38,457 nt of DNA from Escherichia phage T7. Below, in pieces: positions 925-1,620 of the stretch. The first letter of the stretch is position 1; each line of letters begins with the position of its first letter. The notes under the pieces are model-generated. The model saw nothing but the letters and a program-made list of their open reading frames with translations. It did no database searches and was not told where the DNA came from. The position numbers and the translations under genes are program-made. The DNA lies in the sequence record MZ375235.1. One strand, 5' to 3'.

Positions 925-1620
925 ATGGCTATGTCTAACATGACTTACAACAACGTTTTCGACCACGCTTACGAAATGCTGAAAGAAAACATCCGTTATG
1001 ATGACATCCGTGACACTGATGACCTGCACGATGCTATTCACATGGCTGCCGATAATGCAGTTCCGCACTACTACGCTGACATCTTTAGCGTAATGGCAAG
1101 TGAGGGCATTGACCTTGAGTTCGAAGACTCTGGTCTGATGCCTGACACCAAGGACGTAATCCGCATCCTGCAAGCGCGTATCTATGAGCAATTAACGATT
1201 GACCTCTGGGAAGACGCAGAAGACTTGCTCAATGAATACTTGGAGGAAGTCGAGGAAGTCGCACGACAGAAAGAAATTGACCGCGCTAAGGCCCGTAAAG
1301 AACGTCACGAGGGGCGCTTAGAGGCACGCAGATTCAAACGTCGCAACCGCAAGGCACGTAAAGCACACAAAGCTAAGCGCGAAAGAATGCTTGCTGCGTG
1401 GCGATGGGCTGAACGTCAAGAACGGCGTAACCATGAGGTAGCTGTAGATGTACTAGGAAGAACCAATAACGCTATGCTCTGGGTCAACATGTTCTCTGGG
1501 GACTTTAAGGCGCTTGAGGAACGAATCGCGCTGCACTGGCGTAATGCTGACCGGATGGCTATCGCTAATGGTCTTACGCTCAACATTGATAAGCAACTTG
1601 ACGCAATGTTAATGGGCTGA
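925..1620 (+). CDS. 0.3/0.7: Chimeric protein: Ocr (gp0.3, anti-restriction DNA mimic) residues 1-111 fused in frame to the C-terminal ~120 aa of gp0.7 (kinase domain deleted; C-terminal host-shutoff region retained)
   Basis: ORF track 231 aa; N-terminus is the recalled Ocr sequence through ...[11 protein letters not shown], then diverges from wild-type YEEDEE into a basic tail ([19 protein letters not shown]...LMG); stop at 1620 equals T7 gene 0.7 stop 3100 minus 1480. Confidence 0.85.

Follow-up and report, generated by a model that had tools for sequence, protein, structure and literature searches.

The Early-Region Deletion of a Genome-Reduced T7 Clone Is Very Probably the Classic H1 Deletion

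Introduction

H1, the classic early-region deletion of phage T7 (Studier), is not the only spontaneous loss of early DNA between short direct repeats in this phage: others were reportedly described by Studier, Rosenberg, Simon, and Dunn in 1979, and Masker's laboratory is said to have studied T7 deletions between direct repeats. These other early deletions reportedly keep one copy of the repeat, contain no filler DNA, and fall in the dispensable early region, as does the deletion analyzed here.

That deletion, of 1,480 bp, has itself already been published, having appeared spontaneously in several laboratories. Isaev et al. (2020; NAR 48:5397, PMC7261183) described the loss of positions 1256-2735, flanked by AGGAAGTCGAGG direct repeats, which removes genes 0.4-0.6 and generates an in-frame 0.3-0.7 fusion of 231 aa. 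It was these authors who equated the 0.3-0.7 fusion with Studier's H1; they found that it appears spontaneously in rich medium at 37 °C and suggested polymerase slippage (PMC7261183). Working with T7 that had adapted to passage in the laboratory, Heineman and Brown (2012; PMC3470554) listed the change "1257-2736, 0.3-0.7 fusion, 0.4-0.6 deletion", and they noted that a similar deletion reduces the generation time under some conditions.

Here, we analyze a T7 sequence of 38,457 nucleotides, the whole of which is called the window below, and compare the deletion junction in its early region with these described cases. The comparison brings little new biology; its value lies in a correct reading of the window genome.

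A Whole T7 Genome with One Deletion

The window spans the T7 genome from end to end and differs from it in length at one site only. When its segment 900-1700 was compared with the phage records of GenBank by megablast, a full-length match with 100% identity was obtained in MZ375236.1, "Mutant Escherichia phage T7 clone T7_20S" (38,457 bp). Two blocks make up the sequence. The left one (window 1..1256) is 100% identical to T7 1-1256 and comprises the left terminal repeat, the early promoters, and gene 0.3 through codon 111; the right one (window 1257..38457) is colinear with V01146 2737-39937 and runs from codon 240 of gene 0.7 to the right end. Terminal repeats of 160 bp were found at both ends of the window, and the lengths agree: 39,937 - 38,457 = 1,480 bp lost, with no other length change. 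In the alignment, window 1244-38457 corresponds to AY264774 2725-39938 with 8 mismatches and no gaps, that is, to T7 2724-39937 in classic numbering. Because AY264774 has one extra base, the offset is 1,481 in that record and 1,480 in V01146 numbering.

The 8 base differences from AY264774 represent seven events (window 9581-9582, 18326, 23205, 24763, 31539, 32692, and 33783), all of them non-synonymous. Five substitutions (gene 3.5 G119V, 7.3 R91H, 11 A153E, 12 T468A, and 17 K214E) are also present in the undeleted clone T7_10L and therefore belong to the stock of that laboratory, whereas G809S and A1193V, both in gene 16, are private to the window clone. Differences past position 577 were used in the comparison with T7_10L, which is offset by one base over the first 577 nt.

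The Junction Lies in a 13-bp Direct Repeat

The two blocks of the window overlap by 13 bp, AGGAAGTCGAGGA. As indicated by the alignment and by the parental sequences, this stretch (window 1244..1256) is the remaining copy of a direct repeat and forms the crossover zone. In wild-type T7, the two copies of AGGAAGTCGAGGA are located at 1244-1256, at the end of gene 0.3, and at 2724-2736, in gene 0.7 (V01146 numbering, shared by V01127; the right copy is at 2725-2737 in AY264774). Their surroundings read ttgg-AGGAAGTCGAGGA-gtacgag in gene 0.3 and atca-AGGAAGTCGAGGA-agtcgcacgacag in gene 0.7. The parental repeats are identical at 13/13 positions and have the same orientation, and a single copy is left in the window, which first diverges from the T7 left block at position 1257 (A in the window, G in gene 0.3). 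The junction is scarless, with no base inserted or altered and with gap-free colinearity on both sides.

The crossover may fall anywhere in 1244-1256, which explains why the deletion has been published both as 1256-2735 and as 1257-2736. A second register is conceivable, as a 10-bp sequence, GAGGAAGTCG, occurs at T7 1243 and 2733 (AY264774 numbering), but its use would leave only one copy of the 9-mer GAGGAAGTC. Because both 9-mers are present in the window, the 13-bp register was the one used.

From the bases around this junction, the sequence-only reading had deduced a spontaneous deletion between short direct repeats of genes 0.3 and 0.7, and our results support it in substance: a perfect 13-bp repeat is found at both sites and only one copy is kept, and the same deletion is described in the literature as spontaneous and repeat-flanked (PMC7261183). 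The reading had also seen no engineered scar, in agreement with the lack of any inserted base, and had assigned the flanks properly, since comparison of the parental sequences identifies GAGGAAGTCGAGGA as gene 0.3 sequence and the remainder as gene 0.7. The microhomology of "at least 5 bp" that it expected does exist, and its size is above the guessed minimum, as counting the bases shared at the two T7 reference breakpoints gives 13 with no mismatch. The breakpoint interval has to be corrected: it was thought to be ambiguous within 1252-1260, whereas the actual interval is the shared stretch 1244-1256.

We also examined how the 13-mer ranks among the repeats of T7 800-3171, a region that begins shortly before gene 0.3 and ends where gene 1 starts. 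Of the exact direct repeats whose two copies both fall in this region, it is the longest; the next-longest direct repeats are 11 bp long, with copies only 36-58 bp apart. A repeat of at least 13 bp was present in only 4.2% of dinucleotide-preserving shuffles of the same region. Of the repeats at hand, the 13-mer is the best substrate from which a large deletion of dispensable early DNA could arise, though it could be a chance repeat.

The Tandem 9-mer Is Mostly Native to Gene 0.7

Window 1243..1260 (+ strand) reads GAGGAAGTC GAGGAAGTC, followed by GCACGACAG, just as the sequence-only reading had written it. This perfect 2x tandem was read directly from the sequence, recovered by a repeat finder as a two-copy family (100% identical, spacing 9), and compared with the parental T7 sequences; the period-9 identity extends one base further, to 1261. 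As to its parentage, base 1243 comes from gene 0.3, 1244-1256 are common to both genes, and 1257-1260 come from gene 0.7. Wild-type gene 0.7 already contains AAGGAAGTC-GAGGAAGTC (native stretch AAGGAAGTCGAGGAAGTC), a 17/18 match to the perfect tandem, and an H1-type crossover swaps the first A of this near-tandem for the G of gene 0.3, the rest of the tandem being native. The tandem does sit at the deletion junction, where it had been taken as a sign of recombination, but with 17/18 positions native to gene 0.7 it is not a product of the crossover. Judged from the parental sequences, it is a by-product, mostly inherited from gene 0.7 and not created by the deletion.

The 9-mer tandem was also considered as a statistically notable feature by itself. 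This was rejected, since an exact 2x9 tandem is present in 13.5% of first-order random sequences of the window's length. The window contains a second one, at 31890. As a bare pattern, the GAGGAAGTC tandem is only mildly unusual, and it acquires meaning once the window is compared with wild-type T7.

An 11-bp sequence, AAGTCGCACGA, occurs twice in the window (568-578 and 1256-1266; 0.03 expected by chance). Isaev et al. (PMC7261183) report that secondary duplications in 0.3-0.7 fusion phage are bounded by these 11-bp direct repeats.

The Fused Reading Frame and the Lost Genes

The junction lies within an in-frame fused ORF of 231 aa (window 925..1620, + strand), which was characterized from the ORF list, by alignment to both parents, and with Pfam. 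Its residues 1-107 occur only in Ocr, the shared repeat encodes EVEE (108-111), and gp0.7 contributes the final 120 aa, its residues 240-359, which belong to the non-kinase C-terminal part. The deletion is in frame because both copies of the 13-mer are in the same codon phase. In the 231-aa fusion, the only Pfam domain detected was ocr, which is complete (residues 3-103, E = 6e-64). The deletion begins 22 bp before the end of gene 0.3 and stops two-thirds into gene 0.7, so that five genes are spanned: the last 6 codons of gene 0.3 are lost, genes 0.4, 0.5, and 0.6 are absent entirely, and the kinase domain of gp0.7 is gone. ORF 925-1620 is nevertheless labeled "protein kinase" in GenBank, although the kinase domain is deleted, and this label is misleading for what is Ocr joined to the tail of gp0.7.

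The 0.3-0.7 fusion phage still beats EcoKI, but BREX restricts it ~100-fold, compared with ~10-fold for the wild type (PMC7261183). Assays of defense systems performed with such a stock would give results unlike those obtained with wild-type T7.

Set beside H1, or the 0.3-0.7 fusion, the window agrees with it in its end points, as far as the repeat allows them to be placed, and in the DNA lost, the flanking repeat, and the ORF. Its left end is at T7 1244-1256, in the 3′ end of gene 0.3, and its right end at T7 2724-2736 (V01146), in gene 0.7; 1,480 bp are gone in between, and an in-frame Ocr::gp0.7 C-terminal ORF of 231 aa remains, without genes 0.4-0.6. Two differences were noted. First, Isaev et al. 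count 12 bp in the repeat, whereas the reference sequences give 13, with one more shared A. Second, the window isolate comes from a CRISPR/Cas9 genome-reduction experiment, whereas the published H1-type deletions come from plain passage. We found no evidence against the identification, and the junction is very probably that of H1, produced via the 13-bp repeats as a spontaneous and selected deletion. A 13-bp repeat suffices for one and the same deletion to recur across laboratories.

Recurrence in T7 Records and in Related Phages

A 75-nt junction probe matched end to end in nine GenBank phage records, which belong to two submitter sets: T7_20S, T7_30S, T7_1t1, T7_1t2, and T7_1t3, from the window's group, and four "recombinant T7-B" records from another submitter (PV223880-83). 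The remaining T7 records match one side of the probe only.

The four T7-B records (PV223880, PV223881, PV223882.1 at 1243-1259, and PV223883) have the H1 junction minus one A (GAGG-AGTC). The missing A results in a frameshifted ORF of 131 aa, made of Ocr 1-111 and 20 unrelated residues, a change of the same class as the truncations selected on BREX+ cells (Isaev et al., PMC7261183).

In the Yersinia phages YpP-Y and phiA1122, too, gene 0.3 is joined in frame, through its 3′ end, to the C-terminal part of gene 0.7, at the same GAGGAA motif. In YpP-Y (NC_047939, 1526-2212), the fusion is 228 aa long and its junction, with a single GAGGAAGTC, is 9 bp off the H1 register. The phiA1122 fusion (NC_004777, 906-1328) equals that of YpP-Y after the in-frame loss of another 264 bp between 9-bp CTTGAGGAA repeats; its product is a 140-aa "ocr-like" ORF. 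The YpP-Y and phiA1122 fusions are events distinct from H1, in genomes that are about 90% identical. The phage collection searched contained no close YpP-Y relative in which the 0.3-0.7 region is intact. Within the T7 phage group, the end of gene 0.3 seems to have served repeatedly as a deletion end point.

Origin of the Deletion

By their naming and by the sampling scheme, the T7_* clones match the isolates of Yuan et al. (2022; PMC9825161), who passaged T7 on E. coli MG1655 with spCas9 and a guide library directed at non-essential genes. Each CiPGr guide came with its own repair template (2 x 50 bp), the intended deletions being either whole genes or 100 bp, and "20S" denotes a small-plaque isolate from transfer 20 (PMC9825161). 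This "genome-reduced" clone owes its only length change to the old spontaneous H1 deletion and has no designed CiPGr deletion at all. For the origin of the deletion, we favor a spontaneous event that was then selected, because in rich medium the deletion reportedly spreads on passage, because the same deletion is found without CRISPR elsewhere, and because no other deletion or escape-type change is present here.

A serious, though less probable, alternative is that Cas9 triggered the event: a guide would have cut in 0.4-0.7, T7 exonuclease would have resected the ends until the 13-mers were exposed, and these would have joined by single-strand annealing, removing the protospacers and allowing escape from CRISPR. 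In earlier T7 work, breaks reportedly stimulate deletions between direct repeats. The clone was isolated after 20 transfers on MG1655 with spCas9 and the guide library, the authors ascribe some of the undesigned losses to CRISPR-escape mutations (PMC9825161), and the junction is present in T7_20S and T7_30S as well as in a separately named set of the same group, T7_1t1 to T7_1t3. However, the identical deletion occurs without any CRISPR in other laboratories (PMC7261183, PMC3470554), which indicates that Cas9 is not required. Moreover, the window has neither other deletions nor protospacer-type escape changes, its only private changes being the two gene 16 substitutions, which argues against an absolute Cas9 selection on this phage, and the deletion could have pre-existed in the stock at low frequency. 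A search of the literature for T7 escaping Cas9 via microhomology gave no useful report.

The existence of three different in-frame 0.3-0.7 fusions, in T7 H1, YpP-Y, and phiA1122, invites another reading, in which GAGGAAGTCGAGGA and its in-frame partners in gene 0.7 would be a maintained hot spot for shedding 0.4-0.7 with a working Ocr kept or, more narrowly, the repeat would here have served as the template for repairing a Cas9 break, a CRISPR escape by single-strand annealing. We consider this reading unlikely.

Much more improbable still is a designed CiPGr edit, in which a homology template of 2 x 50 bp on a plasmid would have produced the junction. The phage does come from an experiment in which such edits were made, but the boundaries of the deletion lie inside genes 0.3 and 0.7 and five genes are spanned, which corresponds to neither a whole-gene nor a 100-bp design; this and the main text of Yuan et al., where a gp0.3-0.6 large fragment is given among the T7 losses "that we did not design" (PMC9825161), argue that the edit was not a designed one. 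In addition, the junction falls exactly at a native 13-bp repeat, and the deletion was known long before CRISPR. An assembly artefact, with reads mis-joined over a short repeat, can practically be dismissed, as it has nothing in its favor except that a repeat is present, whereas 13 bp is far below the size of a sequencing read, the length fits exactly (39,937 - 1,480 = 38,457), and the same junction recurs in eight further records and in two publications that report phenotypes.

Returning to a spontaneous origin followed by selection, the following sequence of events may be proposed. The starting point would be wild-type T7, in which the 13-mer occurs twice, in the same orientation and frame, with copies 1,480 bp apart. 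Misalignment of the two copies would remove one of them together with all the intervening DNA, either because the nascent strand slipped between the copies as the DNA was replicated or because the copies annealed after exonuclease resection of a break. We infer one of these two molecular routes, slippage or break-induced annealing, which lead to the same product. The copies being in frame, the outcome would be the Ocr::gp0.7 C-terminal fusion. The selective reason is probably faster growth. T7 genome entry is transcription-coupled, and the deletion would bring gene 1 1,480 bp nearer to the early promoters and may thereby allow its earlier expression.

Two sister clones from the same experiment have other deletions in 0.4-0.6, with genes 0.3 and 0.7 intact: T7_40L lacks 677 bp (at about 1305-1308, with a 4-bp overlap, CTGA) and T7_30L lacks 564 bp (at about 1341, with a 1-bp overlap).
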